Of a DNA stretch of 24,000 bases, positions 4,266-23,597 are shown in pieces. The stretch comes from Tractidigestivibacter montrealensis. Lineage in GTDB: Bacteria; Actinomycetota; Coriobacteriia; Coriobacteriales; Atopobiaceae. The position numbers and the translations under genes are program-made. The notes under the pieces are model-generated. The model made no database searches. It was not told where the DNA came from and saw nothing but the letters and a program-made list of their open reading frames with translations. Every line of letters starts with the position of its first letter. Position 1 is the first letter of the stretch. The stretch lies in the NCBI RefSeq assembly GCF_024741235.1, contig NZ_JANSKA010000001.1, positions 537,133 through 561,132 of the forward strand, in the 5' to 3' direction.

Positions 4266-4360
4266 ATTGTTTGACCGCTCATGAAGCGGCGGATAAGTGG
4301 GGCAGCCGGTACAAACAATTCGACAAGCGGCAAATGCTTAGTAACAATAAATAATTGTTT
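4266..4360. promoter_or_regulatory. AT-rich divergent promoter region carrying four copies of ATTGTT(T)/AACAAT half-sites
   Basis: The copies are ATTGTTT at 4266-4272, AAACAAT at 4313-4319, and the close inverted repeat AACAAT-aaata-ATTGTT at 4343-4359. All lie in the 219-bp gap between deoB (start 4181, minus strand) and the wHTH-kinase gene (start 4401, plus strand). Confidence 0.4.
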
Positions 4361-4400
4361 AGAATTGCAATGCAGGGCGACGCACGAGAGAGGGAACGCA

Positions 4401-5516
4401 ATGCTCACTGACAGAGAACAGCAGATCCTTGGGTGGATTCGCGCAAACCCCTCCATTTCCCAGCAGGAGATCGCCGACCGCGCGGGCATCTCTCGATCGT
4501 CTGTCTCCGTCCATATCTCGAACCTCACCAAGAAGGGCGCGATTCTCGGCAGGCAATATGTGCTTGCCGACACCCCCTATGTCGTTGTGGTGGGAGCCAC
4601 CAACATGGATGTGGTTGGCAAGCCGGGCGGGGTTCCCACCCCGCGAGACGTCACGCCAGGCACCATCGTGGTCTCACCCGGCGGCACCGCGCGAAACGTT
4701 GCGCACAACCTCACGCTACTGGGAACCAGCACCAAGCTGGTGACCGCATTTGGGGAAGACGTGCGCGCCAGGGAGCTCTCCGAGGGGTGCATGGGAATGG
4801 GCATGGACCTCGAGGGGTCGGTGACCGTCCCCGGCGGAACCACCTCAACCTGCGTCTTTATCCTGGACGAGCACGGTGACCTCTCCCAGGCCATCGCTGA
4901 CATGGGGATTCTCGACAGCCTCACCCCCAGCGTGCTGGAGCGCAGGCTCGACCTCATCGATCGAGCCGCGGCATGCTTCGTCGACACCAACATCTCCCAC
5001 GAGAGCCTTCGCTTCCTTGCCGAGCACGTGAGCACTCCCCTGTTCTGCGACCCCGTCTCCACCACCAAGGCTGCAAAGCTCTCCGGGCTGCTGGGGCACT
5101 TCCACGCCATGAAGCCAAATGCCCTTGAGGCCGAAGCTCTCACGGGAGTCGCAATCCACGACGAGAAGAGCCTGGAGCTGGCAGCAAAAAAGCTTCTCGA
5201 TACCGGGCTTGACCAGGTGTTCATTTCACTTGGAGCCGACGGGCTTCTCTGCGCGGGACAAGACGGGATGCTTCGGCTCCCCAGCTACAGCGCAAACGTG
5301 GTGAGCGCCACGGGATCCGGTGACGCAATGATGGGGGCAATCATCTGGGCGTATCTGCAGGGTGAGAACCTGGAGGGAACCTGTGCCGCCGGCCTTGCGG
5401 TCGCCGCCATCTGCACGGAGTCTGCCTCTACCGTCAACCCCAACCTCACTGCCCAAGCAGTAAGGCAGCGTATGAACGAGGCTGGTGCGGCAGGAAAGCT
5501 TCTCTCGGCAAGCTAG
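4401..5516 (+). CDS. PfkB-family sugar/nucleoside kinase (pseudouridine-kinase/ribokinase-like) with an N-terminal winged-helix DNA-binding domain
   Basis: ORF 4281..5516 trimmed to the ATG at 4401, after GAGAGAGGGAA. Residues 1-55 (MLTDREQQILGWIRANPSISQQEIADRAGISRSSVSVHISNLTKKGAILGRQYVL) form a MarR-like wHTH. The rest has PfkB motifs: VVVGATNMDVVG, SPGGTARNVAHNL and the C-terminal TGSGDAMMGA. Confidence 0.85.
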   Translation: MLTDREQQILGWIRANPSISQQEIADRAGISRSSVSVHISNLTKKGAILGRQYVLADTPYVVVVGATNMDVVGKPGGVPTPRDVTPGTIVVSPGGTARNVAHNLTLLGTSTKLVTAFGEDVRARELSEGCMGMGMDLEGSVTVPGGTTSTCVFILDEHGDLSQAIADMGILDSLTPSVLERRLDLIDRAAACFVDTNISHESLRFLAEHVSTPLFCDPVSTTKAAKLSGLLGHFHAMKPNALEAEALTGVAIHDEKSLELAAKKLLDTGLDQVFISLGADGLLCAGQDGMLRLPSYSANVVSATGSGDAMMGAIIWAYLQGENLEGTCAAGLAVAAICTESASTVNPNLTAQAVRQRMNEAGAAGKLLSAS

Positions 5517-13767: not shown

Positions 13768-13999
13768 CGATAGTTCAAAAACACTGTTCGCAATACACCT
13801 CCCTTCAAACGTTCTCCAAGATGTAATCGTTTGGGACCTCGTTTCGAAACATTTTTCAACCGTTCACCCCATTTTGATGACCGCTCGTGGTATTCGAGAG
13901 ATAGCAACTCTCGTTTATGGGCAGGCTGGCCAGTTATCCGTGGCGTCCTTTGTCGTGCCACGCATGGGATACCATGAGAGCGACGAAAGGAGGCGCACC

Positions 14000-15073
14000 G
14001 TGGCGTTTGACCCCAGGAGAGAGGACTACCAGCGTCTGGCGCTGCGCTATGCGCTGTCGCTGCCCAAGGGGAACCCCGTTGCCGCGGCCAAGGCGTTCAC
14101 GGACTTTGGCCGCCGCTTTGCCCGTGATCGGGACACGCTTCCCCAATCCGATGCCGACCGCGCCTTCCACCTCGTGGCCGTTGCCGCCGAGGTCATCGAC
14201 TACCAGCTTCCCTTCTCGAGCGAAGAAAGGGCGGACGCGCTCATCAACCGCGGGCGCGACCTTCTCGACGAGGCCATCTCGCTCGACCCCAAGTGCCACG
14301 ACGCTATCCGCATGCGCGCCTCGCGCGTGAGTCCCAGTTTTGATGCCCAGTTCTCCTTCCTCCACGAAGGCGCGGACGAGGTTCTCGCGTCCTGCCAGGA
14401 GGCTCGCGACGCCGTGCCAAACGACGGGGACGATGAGCGCATTGCCCTTGGCCGCGACATCGCCCTTCGTCCCTATAGGCGGTGGATGGCCGCGCTGGCC
14501 GAGGAGGCACTCATCTGTGGCCGCAATCGCAGCTGCATAGAGGCCGGCGAGCGCCTGCTGGAGCAGGACCCCTCGGACCAGGCGGACGTTCGGTTCACGC
14601 TTGCCCTTGCCTACGCAAAGCTCGAGGATGAGGCATCCCTTGACGCGCTGGCCAAGCGCTACGGCACCATCATCCCTGCACGCCCCGCAGACGACGCCTG
14701 GATGGGAATCGCACGGCTGGCACTAGCGCACAAGAGCCACGACATGGGCCAGACCCGGCAGCTTCTCGAGCGCCTGATCGCCGCCTATCCGGGCTGCGCG
14801 TCCGCGCTTATTACGCAAACGGAGCTGCCGGACGGCGTCTTTGCCCGTCTCGCCGTGCCGCCCTACAGCGAGGACGAGCTCATCCTTGCCGTCTCCGAGG
14901 CAACGGTGCTGCTCCAGGAAGGCGACGACAAGAGCGGGCGCGGCGTACTTGGCTCCTGGGTCGCGCGGACCACGGCAAAGCTCTATCCCGAGGCGCTCGC
15001 CGAGGCGCAGGAGTTCTCCGCCCCCTACTACCAGCAGGACGAGAAGGGCCCGCAGGACGGTGATGCCTCGTGA
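14000..15073 (+). CDS. Hypothetical alpha-helical repeat (TPR-like) protein, paralog 1
   Basis: ORF 13874..15073. I prefer the GTG at 14000 because AAAGGAGG (13986-13993) sits 6 nt upstream; the ATGs at 13877 and 13964 lack an SD, so the start is uncertain. GC3-rich codon usage matches the neighbouring genes. I recognise no catalytic motif. It is homologous to the next ORF. Confidence 0.6.
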   Translation: MAFDPRREDYQRLALRYALSLPKGNPVAAAKAFTDFGRRFARDRDTLPQSDADRAFHLVAVAAEVIDYQLPFSSEERADALINRGRDLLDEAISLDPKCHDAIRMRASRVSPSFDAQFSFLHEGADEVLASCQEARDAVPNDGDDERIALGRDIALRPYRRWMAALAEEALICGRNRSCIEAGERLLEQDPSDQADVRFTLALAYAKLEDEASLDALAKRYGTIIPARPADDAWMGIARLALAHKSHDMGQTRQLLERLIAAYPGCASALITQTELPDGVFARLAVPPYSEDELILAVSEATVLLQEGDDKSGRGVLGSWVARTTAKLYPEALAEAQEFSAPYYQQDEKGPQDGDAS

Positions 15074-16041
15074 ACGGACGAGAGGAGCTTGTGCTCAGGT
15101 GCGCCCAGCGGCGCCGCGAGAAGATAGGCACCCTATCTGACGAGGGGTTTGCCGAGCTGTGCCTGGCCGTGCGAGAGAATCCCTCGGCCTTTGTCGACTC
15201 CCCCGAGCAGGCGTCGTTCGCCACGCTCGTTGGCGCGCTGGACGCATTCCACCGCGCCGGCGCCGATGATGACCTTCTCGACGACGAGGAGTTCCGCGCG
15301 GCACGCGAGCGCAGGTTGCAGACGCTCTCGGCAGCATGCGACCAGGCGCTCTCGCAGGACGGCGGCTGCCTGGACGCACGGCTCGTGCAGGTGCTTGCCG
15401 CAGACCTGGACCCCGACGACAGGCTCGACGCTCTTCTCGAGATCGAGGCCAAGGCAGACGCGGCGAACGAGCTCACCCTTGGCAGCACGGGTGACGCCTG
15501 GGACGACGTCTTCACGCGGCCGCGGCTGCGCCTGTGGGACGCCATCGCACGCACCTGCCTTGCAGGTGGCCGCTACCACATGGCGCTCGACGTCTCGCGC
15601 GGCCTCATGGCGGCGTCACCCAAAGACCAGGTTGGCGGCAGGCTCACAGCTGCGCTTGCCCTGGCGCGTCTGGAGGACGAGGAGGGCTTCAACGAGCTTG
15701 ACGCACGCCTTGCCGGTCGTGAGAACTCCTGGCTCAATCTGGGGCGCACCATCCTCCTCTACAAGCTGGGCCGCATGAACGCCGCGCGCCGTGCGCTACG
15801 CGGGTACGGCGAGCTCTGCGAGGGAGCGGCGTACGCCCTGCTCAGACCCACGTTTGTAGAGATCTACCTCCCCGACAGGCCCGAGGTTCCCGCAGGGGGC
15901 TTCGAGGAGGCAACGTTTGCCGTCCACGAGGCGGAGCCCATCATTGCGGACGTGCCAGACTTCATCGCCTGGGCGGACGGCTTCCCGTGGTTCCATGCTG
16001 CCGGCGAGGCATATGCGGAGGAGCACGGATACGACTGGTAG
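15070..16041 (+). CDS. Hypothetical alpha-helical repeat (TPR-like) protein, paralog 2
   Basis: The GTG start overlaps the upstream stop as GTGA at 15070-15073. It shares collinear blocks with paralog 1: RPRLRLWDAIARTCLAGGR vs RPYRRWMAALAEEALICGR, RLTAALALARLEDEEGF vs RFTLALAYAKLEDEASL, and WLNLGRTILLYK vs WMGIARLALAHK. Confidence 0.65.
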   Translation: MNGREELVLRCAQRRREKIGTLSDEGFAELCLAVRENPSAFVDSPEQASFATLVGALDAFHRAGADDDLLDDEEFRAARERRLQTLSAACDQALSQDGGCLDARLVQVLAADLDPDDRLDALLEIEAKADAANELTLGSTGDAWDDVFTRPRLRLWDAIARTCLAGGRYHMALDVSRGLMAASPKDQVGGRLTAALALARLEDEEGFNELDARLAGRENSWLNLGRTILLYKLGRMNAARRALRGYGELCEGAAYALLRPTFVEIYLPDRPEVPAGGFEEATFAVHEAEPIIADVPDFIAWADGFPWFHAAGEAYAEEHGYDW

Positions 16042-16072
16042 AGTGGCGTCGCTCTGATATACTCTCACCTGC

Positions 16073-16147
16073 GTCCCCATCGTCTAGCGGTCAGGACATC
16101 GCCCTTTCAAGGCGACGACACGAGTTCGAGTCTCGTTGGGGGCACCA
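16073..16147 (+). tRNA. tRNA-Glu (anticodon UUC)
   Basis: The cloverleaf folds by hand. Acceptor GTCCCCA pairs with TGGGGGC, the D arm is GTCT-AGCGGTCA-GGAC, the anticodon arm is TCGCC-CTTTCAA-GGCGA, and the T arm is ACGAG-TTCGAGT-CTCGT. It has discriminator A and an encoded CCA. It closely resembles E. coli tRNA-Glu. Confidence 0.95.
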
Positions 16148-16159
16148 TTTGCACCAGGC

Positions 16160-16195
16160 AGCGGCCGTCCCTAACCCAGGGGCGGCCGCTTTTTC
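16160..16195 (+). terminator. Rho-independent terminator after tRNA-Glu
   Basis: AGCGGCCGTCCC (16160-16171) pairs with GGGGCGGCCGCT (16179-16190). This is a 12-bp stem with one G-U pair and a 7-nt loop, followed by TTTTT. Confidence 0.85.
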
Positions 16196-16309
16196 GCAGA
16201 CAGAACAGACGGCACCGCCCCCGCGAACCGCGCCATCACGCTACTATGGCTGATAAGGTCACGTGCCCACGAGCGGCGCCGTGCCGCCCGCACCGAAGGG
16301 AGCTCGAGC

Positions 16310-16606
16310 ATGTCGGACAAGAAGAAGCGCATCCTCATCGCATGCGGCTCCGGCATTGTCACCTCGACAATCGCGCGCAAGAAGATCGAAGAGCTTCTCG
16401 ACGCGCACGGTTACAAGGGCAGCTACGAGATTGCGCAGGTGCCCCTGAGCACGGCACCCGAGAAGTCGAAGGACTGCGACTTCATGGTGGCAACCGCCAT
16501 CCATCCCTCCGAGCTGAGCTGCCCGTTTGTCGACGGCACCCCCTACCTCACCGGCACCGGCGAGAACGCCACTAACGAGCAGATCCTGCACCTCATGGAG
16601 CAGTAG
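16310..16606 (+). CDS. PTS EIIB component, galactitol (GatB)-type, stand-alone
   Basis: A 98-aa ORF after GAAGGGAG. MSDKKKRILIACGSGIVTSTIARKKIEELL carries the phospho-Cys loop (ACGSG..TS) of GatB-type EIIB. No EIIA or EIIC gene is present in this window. Confidence 0.85.
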   Translation: MSDKKKRILIACGSGIVTSTIARKKIEELLDAHGYKGSYEIAQVPLSTAPEKSKDCDFMVATAIHPSELSCPFVDGTPYLTGTGENATNEQILHLMEQ

Positions 16607-16639
16607 GTCCGCGGCTACGCCGCGCGGCGGAGCGCCAAC

Positions 16640-17638
16640 CTACCCCAGCCTGGCAAGCACGGAGGCCGCAATGCCCTCGGGCGTGAGCCCCGCGCGCTCC
16701 AGCAGGCGAGCCTGCTCGTCCGCCTCGGGATAGCCGTCGGGCGCACCCAGGCGCAGCAGCCCAGGGGTAGCGCCGCGGTCGAGCAGCTCCTCGGCGAGAA
16801 GTCCGCCAAGTCCGCCCACCACGCTGTGCTCCTCCACCGTCACGTCAAGCCGCGCGTTGGCGAGAAGCTCAACAACGTGCTGGTCAAGGGGCTTTATCGT
16901 ACCCACGGTCACCACGCGGCAGGAAAGCCCCCGCCCACGCAGCAGCTGGGCGGCAGCTAGCGCGCGAGACGCGATGGAGCCGCAGGTAGCAATCGCAACG
17001 TCTGCCATGCGGCCGGGCGCGTCATCCGCAAGTACGCGGCAGAGCCCAAGCTCGAAGTCCCCACTGGGAAGCGCAGGGTCGCCCGCGGGCGCCTGCGTGA
17101 TGCGCACGTAGGCCGGTCGCGGATTGCGCGCGAGCTCCGCAAGCGCACAGGCAAGCTCGGTGTTGGTCGCCGGTGCCACCACGGTGAGGCCCGGGATAGA
17201 GCGCATGCACGCAAGGTCCTCCAGGGCCATGTGGCTGGGGCCAAGGATGCCCGCGTGGTAGCCTGCGCCGAGCCCAACCAGCACGACCGGCGACTCCATC
17301 ATTCCCAAGTTGACGCGCACCTGGTCGAGCACGCGGGCCGTGATGAACGGCGCATAGGACGGCGCAAACACGTGGAAGCCCTCGTTGGCAAGGGCGGATG
17401 CAACCTCGACCTGGTTCTGCTCGGCAATACCGCACTGAACAACGGAGCCCGGCAGCTTTGAGCGCAGCACATCGAGCGCAAGTCGGCGGCCGTAGTCCGA
17501 GACAACGGCCATGACCTGCGGGTCATTCTCGGCAATCTTTCCAAGCGCCCGGCCAAAGGCCACGCGCGAGTCCAGCCGGTCGAACTCGGCCGGGTCTGCG
17601 ACGACCGCAGACTCCACAGCAACAGCTTCCCTAGACAT
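16640..17638 (-). CDS. Transketolase, C-terminal subunit (pyrimidine-binding plus C-terminal domains) of a split transketolase
   Basis: ORF 16640..17677 trimmed to the ATG at 17636-17638, which overlaps the upstream stop by 8 nt. Matching blocks are GIAEQNQVEVASALANEGFHVFAPSYAPF, GPSHMALEDLACMRSIPGLTVVAP and TVEEHSVVGGLG. Confidence 0.9.
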   Translation of the reverse strand: MSREAVAVESAVVADPAEFDRLDSRVAFGRALGKIAENDPQVMAVVSDYGRRLALDVLRSKLPGSVVQCGIAEQNQVEVASALANEGFHVFAPSYAPFITARVLDQVRVNLGMMESPVVLVGLGAGYHAGILGPSHMALEDLACMRSIPGLTVVAPATNTELACALAELARNPRPAYVRITQAPAGDPALPSGDFELGLCRVLADDAPGRMADVAIATCGSIASRALAAAQLLRGRGLSCRVVTVGTIKPLDQHVVELLANARLDVTVEEHSVVGGLGGLLAEELLDRGATPGLLRLGAPDGYPEADEQARLLERAGLTPEGIAASVLARLG

Positions 17639-19289
17639 GGCCCACCTCCCGACCAAGCTCCCTGACCGCCCGCGCATAGAGCTCGTCGGTCAGCTTGTTG
17701 TCGTGCCACTCCACGCAGTTCTCGGCAAACGAGAGGCCCTTCCCCTTGGTGGTGTGGGCAAGCACGGCCCGCGGCCGCGTATGGCTTGGCGCAAGCACGC
17801 TCCAGAGGGCGCTCACGTCGTGGCCGTCCACCTCGATTGCCTCGAAGCCAAAGGCGCGGAACTTCTCCGCGAGGCTGCCCGTGTCGAGAATCTGCGCCGT
17901 AGGGCCATCGAGCTGCAGCCCGTTGACGTCGACGATAACCGTGAGCGACGCCAACCCCATATGCCCTGCAAGCGCGGCAGCCTCCCAGACCGAGCCCTCG
18001 TTGCATTCGCCATCGCCAAGAAGGCAGAAGACGCGTGAGCCGCTCGCACGCCTGTTTGCGGCAATCGCAAGGCCGCACGCATAGCCCAGCCCCATGCCCA
18101 GACTGCCACCGGAGGTCTCGATGCCACGAGCGGGGTCTCGCCTGGGGTGCTTGAACAGCACCGCATTGGGGCCGAGAAGCCCGCGGTCAATGTCCTCCTG
18201 CGAGACCAGGCCCGCATGAAGCAGGGCCGGGTAGAGCGCGAGAGAGGCGTGACCCTTGGAGAGCACAAAGCGGTCGCGCTGCTCCCAGGGGGTGCCGTCC
18301 GCTCCAGTGCGCATAACGCCCCCGTAGAGCACGGCGAGAATCTCTGCCGCAGAGAGGCTGCCACCCAGGTGGAACGGCATGTTTGGGTTAGCGTGCGCAA
18401 ACTCGACGACGGTCTTGCGAATGTCCAGGGCCAGACCGGAGAGCCGACGCCGTTCAGAGGGGGCAAGCGCGGGGGCAAGCGCCGTGGGTAGCCAGCCGTC
18501 CTGGACCGAGGTCCCAGCCACCTCCTGGCCGGCACGCAGCCAGGTGAGGCCCCACTCGATGACCGTTGCGTCCGCAAGGCCTATGGTCTGGCGCAGCACC
18601 AGCACGGGGTCGTTCTCGCCACATCCCAGCGCCTCCGCGCGTTCCCCTGCCGAAGAGGCGGAGTAGCGCAACTTCGACCAGGTAATCTTTCGGCCAGAGC
18701 AGCGCTCCACGGCGTCGAAAGCCGTCTCACACGAGAAGTCCGCATCTTCCAGGCCCGGGCACTCCCCCAGGTTCTCCCAGCCCTCCTGGCAGATGACCGG
18801 CTTGCCGTCGACAGTGCGAACGCGCAGCAGGTAGAGCACCGGACTGCCCGGCTGTATGCGCAGGTGCTCGGCAACGTCTGCGGGAGCGGGGATCACGCGC
18901 TTCTCGAGGACGTGGGTCACAAAGTCTTTGCCCTGCTCGCGGAGGGACTCGCCAAACGAGAGGGACCGCTCGCCTGCGGGATGCGAGAGAGCGCGCTCCG
19001 AGACAAAGGTGCCCGAGCCGCGCACCTGGACGAGAAATCCCTCGTCCACGAGCTCGCTGATGGCGCGGCGCACGGTACCGCGCGAAATGCCAAAGCGGGC
19101 CATGAGCTCGTGCTCGGAGGGAATACGTGAACCGGGGGCCCACTCGTGCAGGCCGATCTTCTCGCGCAGGAGGGCGGCCAGCTGCGAGTACACCGGGGCA
19201 GAGCCCGCCTTGCCTGCAGAGCGCTCTGTGGACCTGCTCGCCACCGCCTGTGGCGCGCCCCCAAACGCATCCATGCCGTTCTCTGCCAT
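17631..19289 (-). CDS. Fusion protein: GntR-family HTH plus UTRA (HutC-like) effector domain joined to the N-terminal TPP-binding half of a split transketolase
   Basis: ORF 17631..19490 trimmed to the ATG at 19287-19289 (GGGGGAGGGG upstream), because the longer form overlaps tRNA-Leu. Residues ~32-100 are a GntR HTH (PSEHELMARFGISRGTVRRAISELVDEGFLVQVRGSGTFV) and ~105-255 are UTRA-like. An Ala/Pro linker is encoded at ~18444-18524. Transketolase N-terminal motifs follow: HLGGSLSAAEILAVLY, SKGHASLALY, LLGDGECNEGSVWEA and VDVNGLQLDG. Confidence 0.8.
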   Translation of the reverse strand: MAENGMDAFGGAPQAVASRSTERSAGKAGSAPVYSQLAALLREKIGLHEWAPGSRIPSEHELMARFGISRGTVRRAISELVDEGFLVQVRGSGTFVSERALSHPAGERSLSFGESLREQGKDFVTHVLEKRVIPAPADVAEHLRIQPGSPVLYLLRVRTVDGKPVICQEGWENLGECPGLEDADFSCETAFDAVERCSGRKITWSKLRYSASSAGERAEALGCGENDPVLVLRQTIGLADATVIEWGLTWLRAGQEVAGTSVQDGWLPTALAPALAPSERRRLSGLALDIRKTVVEFAHANPNMPFHLGGSLSAAEILAVLYGGVMRTGADGTPWEQRDRFVLSKGHASLALYPALLHAGLVSQEDIDRGLLGPNAVLFKHPRRDPARGIETSGGSLGMGLGYACGLAIAANRRASGSRVFCLLGDGECNEGSVWEAAALAGHMGLASLTVIVDVNGLQLDGPTAQILDTGSLAEKFRAFGFEAIEVDGHDVSALWSVLAPSHTRPRAVLAHTTKGKGLSFAENCVEWHDNKLTDELYARAVRELGREVGHV

Positions 19290-19460
19290 GCTGCCCCTCC
19301 CCCACTCCAAGCGCATCGAAGTTGCGAGACATAGTTGTACACCACTTGTCCCTACGTAGGACACGCAACGGGATGTTCTGGGCGCATGCGCCAAAACAAC
19401 ACGCCAGCGGCAGACCGGCGAACCTGTTGGCCAAGACCGCGGCACAGGATTAACAAAGGC

Positions 19461-19545
19461 TGGTAGGGGCGGTGGGACTCGAACCCACAATCCTTTCGGC
19501 GAGGGATTTTAAGTCCCCTGCGTATGCCAATTCCGCCACGCCCCC
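19461..19545 (-). tRNA. tRNA-Leu (anticodon UAA), class II with a long variable arm
   Basis: The minus-strand sequence is GGGGGCGTGGCGGAATTGGCATACGCAGGGGACTTAAAATCCCTCGCCGAAAGGATTGTGGGTTCGAGTCCCACCGCCCCTACCA. The anticodon arm is GGGGA-CTTAAAA-TCCCT and the T arm is GTGGG-TTCGAGT-CCCAC. CCA is encoded. Confidence 0.9.
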
Positions 19546-19562
19546 AGCTTGTCTTGGGAACC

Positions 19563-20561
19563 CTACTCCCCAGACGGCCGAAGCGGTCTCATGGTGGGCT
19601 TCCACACCACCGGAGACTCGCGCCCATCTAGCATAGCAGCAGCGACAATGGAAAGGCCAAAGAGAAGGTCGCTCTCGCTCACCGTAAGGCTCGAGAAGCC
19701 CGTCTGGCGCACAAGTTCTGAGACCGCAACGGCACCGCCCAGGATCACGGGAGCGCGCTTGGCCTGGATTCCCTTGAGCGCGGCACGCTCCTCCTGCGTG
19801 AGTGAGGCAAGGCGGCGCTCGAGCTCATCGACCTTCTCGCCAGAGAGCTCGTGAAGGTGCACGTACGCAGGGTCATATGGGTCGAGACCGGCGTCGATGG
19901 CCACCAGCGTGGTGACCGTGCCGCCCGTGACCACGAGCGTCTTGGGGTCACCAAGGCGACCCCCTGCCTCTTTAAGCGCCTGCGAGAAGGTCTGTGCGGC
20001 GTACTCGTGGGCTTGGGCCAGGTCCTCTGCGGAAGGCGGATCCTCGCGAGAGAGGAAGCGCTCCGTGAGGCGCCTGCAGCCAACCTGGACCGAGGTGACC
20101 CACCCCAGGTCAAGCGTGCCGCCGGAAAGCTCGCCCACGGCCAGCTCGGTCGAGCCGCCGCCGTTGTCGGCCACCAGGATGCGACGCCCGTCGAAGTCCT
20201 GCGCAACGCCCATGAACGTGAGGGCACCCTCAATTTGCCCTGGAATGATAAGAGGATCGAGGCCAAGCGAGGCAAGCGCCGCACCAAGCTCGGGCGAGTT
20301 GGAGGCGTCGCGTGCGGCACTTGTGAGGGTGCAGCACACGGCCTCGGCACCAGACTCGCGCGCCGAGTTCACATACGCCTTTGCGCAGGCAAAGACGCGC
20401 TCCATGGCCTCCTGCGCAAGTTTGCCCGTTCTGTCAACGTCCTGCCCCAAGTTGCAGATATTCGACTGCTTGCCCAGTCGCACGACGCGGGACCCCTCGA
20501 CGTCCGCCACCGCTAGGCGGCAGGTGACCGTGCCAATGTCGATGACTGCAACCCTGCGCAT
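19563..20561 (-). CDS. Ppx/GppA-family phosphatase (exopolyphosphatase / guanosine pentaphosphate phosphohydrolase-like)
   Basis: A 332-aa ORF. MRRVAVIDIGTVTCRLAVADV and ILVADNGGGSTELAVG are the ASKHA phosphate-binding loops typical of Ppx/GppA. The start overlaps the upstream stop as TAATG at 20559-20563. Confidence 0.88.
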   Translation of the reverse strand: MRRVAVIDIGTVTCRLAVADVEGSRVVRLGKQSNICNLGQDVDRTGKLAQEAMERVFACAKAYVNSARESGAEAVCCTLTSAARDASNSPELGAALASLGLDPLIIPGQIEGALTFMGVAQDFDGRRILVADNGGGSTELAVGELSGGTLDLGWVTSVQVGCRRLTERFLSREDPPSAEDLAQAHEYAAQTFSQALKEAGGRLGDPKTLVVTGGTVTTLVAIDAGLDPYDPAYVHLHELSGEKVDELERRLASLTQEERAALKGIQAKRAPVILGGAVAVSELVRQTGFSSLTVSESDLLFGLSIVAAAMLDGRESPVVWKPTMRPLRPSGE

Positions 20562-21485: not shown

Positions 21486-23597
21486 TCAGGAGTGGCTCTC
21501 CTCTTGCTTCGCACGGTCCCAAAGCTCGTTCAGCTCCGCAGTCGAGAGTGCGTCAAGGTCGCAGCCCTTCTCACGCGCCAGGTCCTCCATGCGAGACCAG
21601 CGGCGACGGAACTTCTCGTTGCTCTGTGCCAGGGCCCCCTCGGCGTCGATGCCCTCCATGCGCGCTACGTTCACCAGCGAGAAGAGCAGGTCGCCAAACT
21701 CGAGCGCGCGGGCCTGTGATCCTGTCGGCTCGCGCTCGAACTCATCGCGCTCCTCGTGCACCTTGTCCCACACGCCAGAGACGTCATCCCAGTCGAAGCC
21801 GACCTTTGCCGCGCGAGCGCTGATCTTTTGGCACTGCATGAGCGCCGGCATAGCGCGCGGCACGGAGTCGAGAAGCCCGACCTCAGGCTCCCTGGCGCTG
21901 GCGCCCGCCGTCTCGCGCTCGCGACGCTTCACGTTGTCCCAGATGCGAGCCACGTCCTCGGGCGTCTCGGCATCCACGCCACCAAAGACGTGGGGGTGAC
22001 GGCGCACGAGCTTCTCATCTATGGCGCGGCACACGTCATCGATGGTGAAAGCGCCTTCCTCCGCAGCCACCTGCGAGTTGAGGACCACCTGGTAGAGCAC
22101 GTCGCCGAGCTCCTCCGCCATGTGGGAGGCGTCATCTGCGCGCAGGGCCTCGGCAGCCTCGTAGGCCTCCTCAACCATGTAGCGCACAAGCGACTCGTGC
22201 GTCTGCTCGCGGTCCCACGGGCAGCCGTCCTCCTGGCGCAGGCGCCAGACCGTGCGCACGAGCCGGTCGAACTCGCAGTGCGTTCCGGGAACGCCGGGGC
22301 GCGAGAGACTCTCGGCGTCCACGGCGCAAAGGGCGTCCGCGGTCGTAGCGACCTCCGGCCCCGGCACGGGCGCGGACACGGGGTCCGCTTGGGGCCCGCG
22401 GCCGCCCACCCCGACGCCGCCGCCGTTGCGCACTGCTGCGGCGAGCGCCTCGGCGACAATCCCCGCACCGGTGGAGCCGGGATGCAGCCGACCGTCAGCA
22501 AACATGAGGGGGCTTCTCGGCAAGATGCTTGCTCCGTCGACCACCGTCACGTTTTCGTGGCCACGGCACGCGCGCTCAATGGCACGGCGCACCCACGAAA
22601 GCGACTTGCCATTAGGGATGCCAGCCAGCGTGGCCTCGTCCGCCTCGTCGGCGCGCCAGAGCGGCGTGAGCACGTAGATGGGCGTGTTGGGGAAGAGCTT
22701 GCACAGGCGGTCAAGGTAGGCGGAGGCGTCGCGGCGAATCTCCTTGCCCGAGCCCTCGCAGCCCCAGTCGTTGGTCCCGTAGGCCACGGTAATTGCCGCA
22801 GGCGGCTCCTTGCGCAGCGCCTTTATACCCGTAAGCGTCTTCTGGTCAAAGACGTAACCGCAGACGGCCTGGTTCACCAGGTCAAGGCCAAGCTCCGCCG
22901 AGAGGAGCGCCGGGTACGAGAGTGAAGGGCACCCCACCACAAAGCCCTGGGTGATGGAGTCGCCAAGGGCCAGCAGGTAGCCGCGCCGGGGTGCCGGGGC
23001 GGCCGTGCCGTTCGAGACAAGGCGTCCCACGGCAACGGACATAATGAGCGGCAGGTAGATGCGAACCTCGAGGGGCAGGTGCTCCGGATTGTCGAAGCGC
23101 ACGGCAATACGACCGTCTCGCACGGCGACGGTATGGGACTGGCCACCCTCCACCACGGCGTCGATGCCGTCGATAAGGCCGTCCTCTGCTTGCCCAAGAC
23201 TGCCCAGGTGCTCCATGACCTCGGAGTAGAGCGGGTGCGCGGGATCCAGGGCAGCCGTCACGTGGCAGTCAAAGGAGACCTCACTGCCCGTGGTCACAAG
23301 CGCCAGGCAAATGCCCGAGGTCGCGCGGGCACGGCGCCCGCGACCAACGGAGTCCAGGTAGCGAAGCTGTTTCTCGGAGAAGCGGTAGGGCTGCACAAGA
23401 CCGTCGCCCGCGTCCTCGACGAGAAGGGCGCCACGAAGGTACTCGGTGATGTCACCGGGCAGGGATACCTCGGACGGGGCCGCATCCTCGCCGGAATGCG
23501 GCGTCATTCTCGTCCCCATGTGCGCAGCCGCAAGCGCCGTGCGTGCCAGCTTGCCAGACTTGATGAGCCTTGCCCTATCATCCTTGCTCAAAGCCAT
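21486..23597 (-). CDS. mazG: Three-part fusion: unknown N-terminal domain, SGNH/GDSL hydrolase domain and tandem MazG nucleoside-triphosphate pyrophosphohydrolase
   Basis: A 703-aa ORF after GAGGAGAGGGA. Residues ~207-388 are SGNH: block I LLALGDSITQG (Ser214, nt 22956-22958), YGTNDW, and block V DGRLHP. Residues 389-440 form a Gly/Pro-rich linker. Residues 441-703 hold two MazG repeats (CPWDREQTHESLVRYMVEEAYEAAEA...ELGDVLYQV...RRHPHVFG, then VWDKVHEERDEFE...EFGDLLFSLVNVAR). Confidence 0.85.
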   Translation of the reverse strand: MALSKDDRARLIKSGKLARTALAAAHMGTRMTPHSGEDAAPSEVSLPGDITEYLRGALLVEDAGDGLVQPYRFSEKQLRYLDSVGRGRRARATSGICLALVTTGSEVSFDCHVTAALDPAHPLYSEVMEHLGSLGQAEDGLIDGIDAVVEGGQSHTVAVRDGRIAVRFDNPEHLPLEVRIYLPLIMSVAVGRLVSNGTAAPAPRRGYLLALGDSITQGFVVGCPSLSYPALLSAELGLDLVNQAVCGYVFDQKTLTGIKALRKEPPAAITVAYGTNDWGCEGSGKEIRRDASAYLDRLCKLFPNTPIYVLTPLWRADEADEATLAGIPNGKSLSWVRRAIERACRGHENVTVVDGASILPRSPLMFADGRLHPGSTGAGIVAEALAAAVRNGGGVGVGGRGPQADPVSAPVPGPEVATTADALCAVDAESLSRPGVPGTHCEFDRLVRTVWRLRQEDGCPWDREQTHESLVRYMVEEAYEAAEALRADDASHMAEELGDVLYQVVLNSQVAAEEGAFTIDDVCRAIDEKLVRRHPHVFGGVDAETPEDVARIWDNVKRRERETAGASAREPEVGLLDSVPRAMPALMQCQKISARAAKVGFDWDDVSGVWDKVHEERDEFEREPTGSQARALEFGDLLFSLVNVARMEGIDAEGALAQSNEKFRRRWSRMEDLAREKGCDLDALSTAELNELWDRAKQEESHS

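Follow-up and report, generated by a model that had tools for sequence, protein, structure and literature searches.

A single uninterrupted gene of Tractidigestivibacter montrealensis joins a GntR/UTRA transcriptional regulator to the thiamine diphosphate (ThDP)-binding subunit of a split transketolase-like enzyme. The gene lies in a 24,000-nucleotide (nt) stretch of contig NZ_JANSKA010000001.1 (hereafter the window, whose numbering is used for all positions), and was pointed out in a preliminary description made from the letters of the window without database searches. We found that this regulator-enzyme fusion is genuine and that both halves, judged by their sequences, look functional, in an architecture like that of DNA-binding trigger enzymes. 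The architecture, its age, the selection acting on it, the conservation of its residues and the co-occurrence of an upstream cis-motif with the regulator are directly established by the comparisons described below. The explanation that we favor, with a probability of roughly 0.6, is that the product is a bifunctional, self-repressing protein whose two modules stand side by side on a flexible tether.

The fused reading frame and its two modules

The minus-strand frame from 17631 to 19289 comprises 552 codons followed by TAG and has no internal stop, as the preliminary description had stated. Upstream of 19289 the frame remains open as far as a TTG at 19490, and this extension enters the tRNA-Leu gene at 19461-19545. 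Because the longer frame runs into the tRNA gene and the Shine-Dalgarno (SD)-like sequence GGGGGAGGGG stands just before ATG 19289, this ATG is considered a plausible start. The Pfam scores of GntR, UTRA and Transketolase_N (the last matching residues 307-546 of the protein with 108.5 bits; PF00456) were all well over their cut-offs (Table 1). With NCBIfam, the HutC and PhnF models covered the first half of the protein, and the transketolase models aligned from residue 282. The GntR-type helix-turn-helix (HTH; PF00392), the UTRA domain (PF07702) and the Ala/Pro linker, which contains WLPTALAPALAPSERRR, were therefore recovered as first described, and the suspicion that the N-terminal half might not be GntR/UTRA was removed by the same profiles.

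A GntR winged HTH with UTRA directly behind it is the layout of the HutC subfamily, whose members have about 240 amino acids and end at UTRA; the present protein has 552 amino acids and continues from UTRA into Transketolase_N. The junction of the modules reads ...WLRAGQEVAGTSVQDGWLPTALAPALAPSERRRLSGLALDIRK... and has no start codon in frame. Separate initiation of the enzyme module was considered and rejected, since the linker offers no ATG, GTG or TTG that is in frame and preceded by a usable SD, and the homologues have no conserved Met there. The DNA-binding domain and the enzyme module thus belong to one polypeptide without a conserved internal start, as in trigger enzymes.

The regulator half aligned over its full length to NagR/YvoA, DasR and PhnF (residues 26-248, E about 1e-22), and its fold agreed with that of YvoA and DasR, with a match to 3HFI. 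In NagR, Thr90, Ser165-Tyr167, Arg133 and Arg135 bind the phosphate of the effector, whereas contacts to the sugar come from Phe89, Glu145 and others (PMC4333415). The pocket positions of NagR correspond in the fusion to S111-F112, R156, R158, E169, T189-F191, Q234 and E245, which are invariant or almost so across 55 fused proteins. HTH residues S58, E59, R70, G71, T72 and R74 do not vary in either the fused or the stand-alone regulators, and the recognition-helix and pocket residues as a whole are equal in the two forms. Since these residues are unchanged, the fused regulator probably still recognizes the DNA sites of its ancestor and still responds to a phosphorylated effector.

In the enzyme half, H307, H347, H381, D426, E431, N456 and H529 correspond to His37, His77, His110, Asp155, Glu160, Asn185 and His258 of human transketolase, whose catalytic and cofactor roles are well established, and all seven are invariant in the 55 fused proteins. 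D426 and N456 belong to the ThDP motif GDGE...N, and a complete transketolase N-terminal subunit carrying the GDG...N motif, as the first reading had it, is thus present. Its best solved relative is 6YAK chain A (44% identity, template modelling score 0.88). The start codon of the adjoining C-subunit gene, ATG 17638, lies inside ATGTCTAG and overlaps the TAG of the fusion (17631-17633) by the 8 nt noted before, and a GGGAGG SD precedes it. This overlap, together with the SD of its own, indicates that translation of the C subunit would be coupled to that of the fusion gene. The pair has the composition of a split transketolase, namely an N chain with the PP domain, GDG-X(~28)-N and the histidines, and an adjoining gene for the Pyr and C-terminal domains with the activating Glu.

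The C subunit is non-canonical. It keeps the cofactor-activating Glu (in GIAEQN, equivalent to human E366) and a basic residue at the position of Arg318. SDYGRRL, GLGAGYHAGILGPSH and VRITQ stand in for ADLxxS, THxGxxxGEDGxTH and RxxR, so that the positions of human Ser345, His416, Glu423-Asp424 and Arg474 are occupied by Arg, Gly, Ile-Leu and Gln. In E. coli numbering these positions are Ser385, His461, Glu468-Asp469 and Arg520, with GEDG changed to GILG; Ser385, His461, Asp469 and Arg520 are known to serve in acceptor and phosphate binding. The acceptor residues of canonical transketolase (EC 2.2.1.1) are missing from the C subunit of the window and from its whole clade. The signature is common to loci with the fusion and loci with the enzyme pair only, and partly to the nearest relatives in other phyla, and SDYGRRL is specific to the Atopobiaceae clade. 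The genome has a second split transketolase with canonical motifs and far higher Pfam scores, which adjoins transaldolase and KDPG-aldolase genes. Relatives of the fused enzyme pair outside the family lie in clusters with SDR, FabA-like, LuxC-like, GNAT, radical-SAM and PseB/CapD-like genes. Because the C-subunit motifs are altered and the genome has a separate canonical pair, we consider the fused enzyme to be probably a transketolase-like ThDP enzyme with an altered acceptor site and not a pentose-phosphate enzyme. The earlier designation as a split transketolase therefore holds for the two-chain split and the residues of the N chain, and does not hold for the canonical substrate-binding residues of the C subunit. 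D-apiose/apulose-phosphate transketolase was considered as a function and dropped, since a literature search gave nothing usable.

In this non-canonical subfamily, Transketolase_N is often joined to other enzymes, namely GNAT, SDR, PfkB kinase, GT2 glycosyltransferase, NAD-epimerase/dehydratase and methyltransferases (P0162-P0228). The two of these fused genes whose neighborhood was examined (L042:3316-4743 and L046:6218-7780) lie in glycan or acyl biosynthesis-like clusters.

An AlphaFold2 model of the single chain, computed with 55 homologues, contained confident modules at residues 33-96, 112-252 and 277-550. The predicted local distance difference test score was below 50 at residues 1-29, 98-108 and 258-269, the last segment being the first 12 residues of the linker, which are disordered in the model. 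The predicted template modelling score (pTM) of the whole chain was 0.54, and therefore the model gives no confident arrangement of, or interface between, the modules. Linker length differs greatly between homologues, and some have much longer inserts there. In fold comparison the two halves matched separately, one to NagR/DasR/PhnF and the other to the alpha subunit of split transketolase (6YAK), and no solved structure among the fold matches spanned both.

Age and origin of the fusion

A search of 5.8 billion proteins gave approximately 70 protein clusters in which GntR, UTRA and Transketolase_N occur in one protein, with identities from 98% down to 48%; the domain co-occurrence search proposed in the preliminary description was thus positive. 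The source names of these clusters include Olsenella, Parolsenella and Atopobiaceae, and their product names are just 'UTRA domain-containing protein' or similar. The nearest relative of the fusion in the window is that of Olsenella sp. kh2p3 (94%), and fused orthologues were also found in Lancefieldella parvula, Atopobium and Olsenella. At the genome level, 41 of 151 Atopobiaceae genomes carry the fused gene, representing at least 13 genera across which the fused form is 48-60% identical. In a set of 401 genomes covering 33 families of the class, no fused gene was found outside Atopobiaceae.

Nine genomes of the genus of the window have an intact open reading frame (ORF) of 1659 nt with 84-89% DNA identity and an undisturbed frame. 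An indel artefact is excluded, because independent assemblies, both these nine genomes and the 70 or so clusters, keep the fusion intact. Within the genus, the Nei-Gojobori dN/dS ratio of the HTH was 0.06; UTRA and Transketolase_N each gave 0.07, and the linker 0.13. All modules of the fusion are under strong purifying selection.

The locus has a fixed gene order, MazG - DivIC - Ppx - tRNA-Leu - operon - convergent paralogous hypothetical pair - CstA, and occurs in three states. In state A the operon is the fused gene with the C subunit; in state B, found in one genus and one further genome, it is Transketolase_N with the C subunit and no regulator; and in state C it consists of a stand-alone GntR/UTRA regulator, a TIM-like gene, UPF0047, and the IIB and Gat-type EIIC genes of a phosphotransferase system (PTS). 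Whether orthologous loci carry separate genes, a check suggested at the outset, is thus answered in two parts: the gene is fused in at least 13 genera, and enzyme-only (state B) and regulator-only (state C) loci exist as well. The regulator-PTS operon sits elsewhere too in some genomes, and the genome of the window is without it. That the fused form might require the PTS operon was considered and rejected. The two occur together in just 8 of the 41 fused genomes, approximately the background frequency, and therefore the fusion is not associated with the PTS operon.

Phylogenetic trees were consistent with a single origin. The Transketolase_N sequences of the Atopobiaceae locus form one clade (support 100), and both enzyme-only lineages nest within the fused sequences. 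A tree grouping the fused Transketolase_N sequences without the enzyme-only ones was rejected by the approximately unbiased test (p-AU 0.005), for a group named after inspection of the tree. In the tree of the regulator half, a single clade among the stand-alone regulators takes in 27 of the 28 fused sequences, and monophyly of all fused regulators was not rejected (p-AU 0.43). The simplest reading of these trees is that the fusion arose once, early in Atopobiaceae, and that the regulator half was later deleted cleanly at least twice. The enzyme-only loci accordingly look like secondary losses, and the regulator half appears to derive from the stand-alone HutC-type lineage that controls the Gat-type PTS operon. 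Sensitive tblastn of the spacers between Ppx and Transketolase_N in enzyme-only loci gave nothing convincing as a regulator remnant (best E 0.003, at one locus), and the conserved tRNA-Leu was the sole element recovered there. One genome (G029) holds a decayed copy of the fusion. The preliminary description had offered a recent fusion through loss of the regulator's stop codon. The spread over at least 13 genera at 48-60% identity and the trees that fit a single origin contradict this proposal, and the enzyme-only loci, which look like later losses of the regulator half, count further against it.

A candidate operator and the readings of the fusion

Regulator-bearing loci have in common an upstream 17-mer, yTGTAyAnnAnyTGTCC, often in two to three head-to-tail copies about 16 nt apart. 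When a weight matrix made from 12 instances was scored on held-out loci only, 7 of 10 fused loci reached at least 21 bits and 7 of 13 stand-alone-regulator loci at least 18.5 bits, and the best score in the enzyme-only loci was 0.4 bits or less (6 of 6). Within each 4-15-kb locus, sites of at least 18 bits were confined to the upstream region. The site of the window at 19335-19351, TTGTACACCACTTGTCC, scored 25.5 bits and is the sole site of at least 21 bits in the 2.46-Mb genome, the runner-up scoring 19.1. This single strong site suggests that the regulon is limited to the fusion operon itself. The 17-mer is identical in nine genomes of the genus despite differing flanks. It is placed between the SD and a terminator-like hairpin behind tRNA-Leu, which would separate upstream transcripts from the control region of the fusion operon. 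A search for inverted repeats upstream of the fusion gave no pair, and a consensus scan of 16000-19600 gave no sigma-70 promoter.

In the mechanism that we propose, the first module would be a complete HutC-type repressor (winged HTH and UTRA), which binds the candidate 17-mer upstream of its own gene and shuts down the two-gene operon until a phosphorylated sugar-like effector in the UTRA pocket releases it. The second module would bind ThDP as the alpha subunit of a two-chain enzyme resembling transketolase; its partner would be the C subunit, made by coupled translation, and the two probably form an alpha2beta2 tetramer. Because each repressor molecule would also be an enzyme subunit, repression would scale directly with the enzyme concentration. 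The regulator would have been recruited from the lineage controlling the TIM-like/UPF0047/PTS-IIB/EIIC(Gat) operon at the same locus, and the fusion selectively kept since. Within this scheme, the binding to DNA, the direction of regulation, the kind of effector, and the activity and quaternary structure of the enzyme are inferred.

Several points weigh against this reading. DNA binding, repression and catalysis are predictions from sequence. The 17-mer was initially picked by eye; it is no clean palindrome, unlike the classical HutC operators; in the genus of the window it is reversed relative to the gene; and 3 of the 10 held-out fused loci score poorly for it. The C subunit is without the four canonical substrate-binding residues, so that the enzyme activity of the pair is an assumption. 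The single-chain model is silent on whether a UTRA dimer and a transketolase dimer could co-exist over a linker of approximately 12-24 residues. In addition, in one species (G083) the fused ORF persists despite decayed catalytic residues, a hint that the appended module may have a non-catalytic role as well.

The fused protein of G083 (P0126; L020:5964-8724) is encoded by an intact ORF, which was seen on 63 contigs, and its regulator half scores normally. Its Transketolase_N part has the changes H307R, GG to ED, H347Y, H381S and GDGE to GASD, by which the GDG motif and three catalytic histidines are lost, and its C subunit is divergent too. Of the 27 non-redundant fused lineages, 26 keep all residues for ThDP, Mg and catalysis unchanged, as does the window. 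In this one species, either decay is under way or the module has moved to a non-catalytic role.

The evidence fits two independently working tethered modules just as well as it fits DNA binding coupled to catalysis or assembly, the possibility raised in the preliminary description. In a true trigger enzyme, the state of the enzyme half, be it loading with ThDP or substrate or assembly with the C subunit, would govern operator binding and make that half a second sensor. Such coupling could explain why the fusion was long kept in many genera although separate genes would serve, and the intact fused ORF of G083 after loss of the GDG motif and catalytic histidines is what a regulatory or structural role would predict; the linker is also short in the genus of the window, with 12 disordered residues. 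A linker of variable length and predicted disorder argues against a fixed interface, however, and with a pTM of 0.54 the model gives no confident contact between the modules. The regulator already has a complete effector domain with a pocket as in its stand-alone relatives, the enzyme-only lineages discarded the regulator and retained the enzyme, and G083 is a single species that may be merely decaying. We therefore regard coupling as a possible but rather improbable explanation.

Alternatively, Transketolase_N and the C subunit could be non-catalytic, serving as oligomerization or ligand-sensing parts of a transcription factor in the manner of MocR. The missing acceptor-site His, Asp, Arg and Ser of the C subunit and Pfam scores far below those of the canonical split transketolase of the genome are in line with this, and G083 demonstrates that such decay is possible. 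We consider it unlikely, because the residues for ThDP, Mg and catalysis are invariant in nearly all fused lineages and because enzyme-only lineages keep the pair without any regulator. The non-canonical C-subunit motifs, moreover, are partly found in unfused relatives from many phyla in biosynthetic clusters, and this recurrence indicates a different specificity rather than decay.

Marginally less probable still is an HTH that no longer binds DNA, which would make the GntR/UTRA half an allosteric ligand-binding domain of the enzyme. DNA binding is indeed only inferred and the candidate operator is no textbook palindrome; yet the HTH is under purifying selection as strong as that on the enzyme (dN/dS 0.06), its recognition-helix residues are the same as in the stand-alone relatives, and the upstream motif co-occurs with the regulator and is lost with it in enzyme-only loci. 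Finally, the joining of two adjacent genes by an error of sequencing or assembly, or by very recent loss of a stop codon, has a negligible probability and is already refuted by the comparative data: a short linker does sit where a stop and a start codon would be expected, but nine same-genus genomes share the identical architecture in an intact frame, the clusters stem from independent isolates and metagenomes, and fused orthologues occur in L. parvula, Atopobium and Olsenella.

Neighboring genes and relation to known systems

The features of the operon and its surroundings are collected in Table 1.

Table 1. Positions of the fusion gene, its modules and adjacent elements in the window
Feature	Position	Strand	Description
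Orphan GatB-type PTS IIB gene	16310..16606	+	PF02302; convergent with the C-subunit gene
Partner C subunit	16640..17638	-	Transket_pyr + Transketolase_C (PF02779 + PF02780); non-canonical active-site motifs
Fusion gene	17631..19289	-	552 codons + TAG; GntR winged HTH, UTRA, linker, Transketolase_N
Transketolase_N (ThDP/PP) module	17634..18446	-	Residues 282-552
Inter-module linker	18447..18518	-	Residues 258-281; Ala/Pro-rich
UTRA effector-binding domain	18531..18938	-	Residues 118-253; PF07702, 92.5 bits
GntR-type winged HTH	19002..19190	-	Residues 34-96; PF00392, 66.8 bits (cut-off 27)
SD-like GGGGGAGGGG	19294..19303	-	Precedes ATG 19289; read from sequence
Candidate operator TTGTACACCACTTGTCC	19335..19351		In + strand notation; 46-62 nt upstream of ATG 19289
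Terminator-like hairpin + T-run	19392..19420	-	Hairpin 19402-19420; downstream of tRNA-Leu; consensus scan only
tRNA-Leu(UAA)	19461..19545	-	Between Ppx and the operon; kept also in enzyme-only loci

The orphan IIB gene shares 65-68% identity with its counterparts in the regulator-PTS operons of related genera. In the genome of the window, the TIM-like and UPF0047 genes had no match, matches to EIIC were distant only (42% identity or less), and neither a cognate EIIC nor an EIIA for the IIB was found. The orphan gene is likely a relic of the PTS operon that stands under the stand-alone regulators. Together with the fusion operon it is flanked by tRNA-Glu (16073-16147, plus strand) and tRNA-Leu (19461-19545, minus strand), and in two other genomes an IIB gene lies downstream of the C subunit in unchanged orientation. 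The TIM-like gene of the regulator-PTS operon (L017:6761-8032 and its equivalents in L109-L119) is unusually conserved, with 74-89% identity across genera. It is followed by UPF0047 (YjbQ-like), and the adjoining regulator is 55-60% identical to the regulator half in the window.

Elsewhere in the window, two adjoining plus-strand genes (13874-15073 and 15070-16041) have no Pfam match and a weak mutual similarity of about 30%, and the pair is syntenic beside the operon across Atopobiaceae. The minus-strand gene at 21486-23597 encodes a 703-amino-acid protein with a GDSL-type lipase/acylhydrolase domain and a MazG nucleotide pyrophosphohydrolase domain; the match to this protein is confined to the MazG part in several other genera. 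A second regulator-enzyme fusion of 411 amino acids is encoded at 4281-5516 on the plus strand, with an HTH_24/MarR winged HTH at residues 42-88 and a PfkB-family sugar kinase at residues 100-388. Genes for a Crp/FNR-type regulator, a YjjI-like glycyl-radical enzyme and its radical-SAM activase lie downstream of it.

To our knowledge, regulator-enzyme fusions, or trigger enzymes, are known and few of them are understood. Atopobiaceae offers within one family a comparison of the fused form, an enzyme-only form in which regulator and operator were lost together, a regulator-only form with the PTS operon, and a fusion with a decaying enzyme. These four forms make it testable why fusions persist and how enzyme domains turn into sensors, and the carriers, such as Olsenella and Lancefieldella parvula, are cultivable oral and gut commensals. 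If operator binding depended on the enzyme half after all, the protein would report enzyme assembly or flux straight to its own promoter, and G083 would be a natural intermediate between an enzyme and a pure sensor domain. The subfamily to which the enzyme pair belongs is widespread and transketolase-like, has an altered acceptor site, and should not be annotated as pentose-phosphate transketolase.

A full-text literature search aimed at this fusion found no publication on it. Outside Atopobiaceae, no transcription-factor module with Transketolase_N was present in the best 150 of 1113 strong matches among 1.84 billion protein representatives. Of ten long representatives containing Transketolase_N (nine and P0126 of Atopobiaceae), most join it to another enzyme (PfkB, GT2, epimerase, methyltransferase, GNAT); one had an N-terminal part without a Pfam match, and P0126 alone had a regulator module. 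Fusion of a ThDP enzyme to a regulator, or of a complete HutC repressor to an enzyme, was found neither in solved structures nor in the literature search nor in the best 150 protein representatives.

For the enzyme, the top solved relative of both subunits is the alpha2beta2 split transketolase of Carboxydothermus hydrogenoformans (6YAK/6YAJ; 2.5e-59 and 2.2e-39). It has the same division into a PP chain and a chain of Pyr and C-terminal domains and the same ThDP motif, but it keeps HxGxxxGEDGxSH and RxxR, where the C subunit of the window has GLGAGYHAGILGPSH and VRITQ, and carries no regulator.

For the regulator, NagR/YvoA, DasR and PhnF share with the fusion the winged HTH and UTRA, the fold, the Arg pair for the phosphate and equivalents of the sugar contacts. 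They are stand-alone proteins of about 240 amino acids that end at UTRA, whereas the fusion adds an enzyme subunit of 270 amino acids, and its candidate operator differs from the palindromic dre-type site. The stand-alone Atopobiaceae regulators are 55-61% identical to the regulator half, often occupy the same Ppx-adjacent locus, and share the upstream motif and the HTH and pocket residues. These also end at UTRA and control the PTS operon, whose place is taken in the fused form by the transketolase-like pair.

As fusions, the DNA-binding trigger enzymes PutA, BirA and NadR likewise carry a metabolic enzyme module on the same chain as a DNA-binding domain, with repression of their own pathway as a probable further likeness. 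Unlike in these proteins, the regulator of the fusion is a complete two-domain repressor with an effector pocket of its own, and the enzyme part is one subunit of a heteromeric ThDP enzyme; the likeness is one of architecture. GntR regulators of the MocR/GabR/PdxR type also combine a GntR-family HTH with a large enzyme-derived domain, which is aminotransferase-like. In MocR proteins, however, this domain stands in place of the effector domain and is in most cases no metabolic enzyme, whereas the fusion retains UTRA and nearly all of its lineages have an enzyme module that looks catalytically intact. The decayed lineage of G083 resembles the end state of the MocR type.

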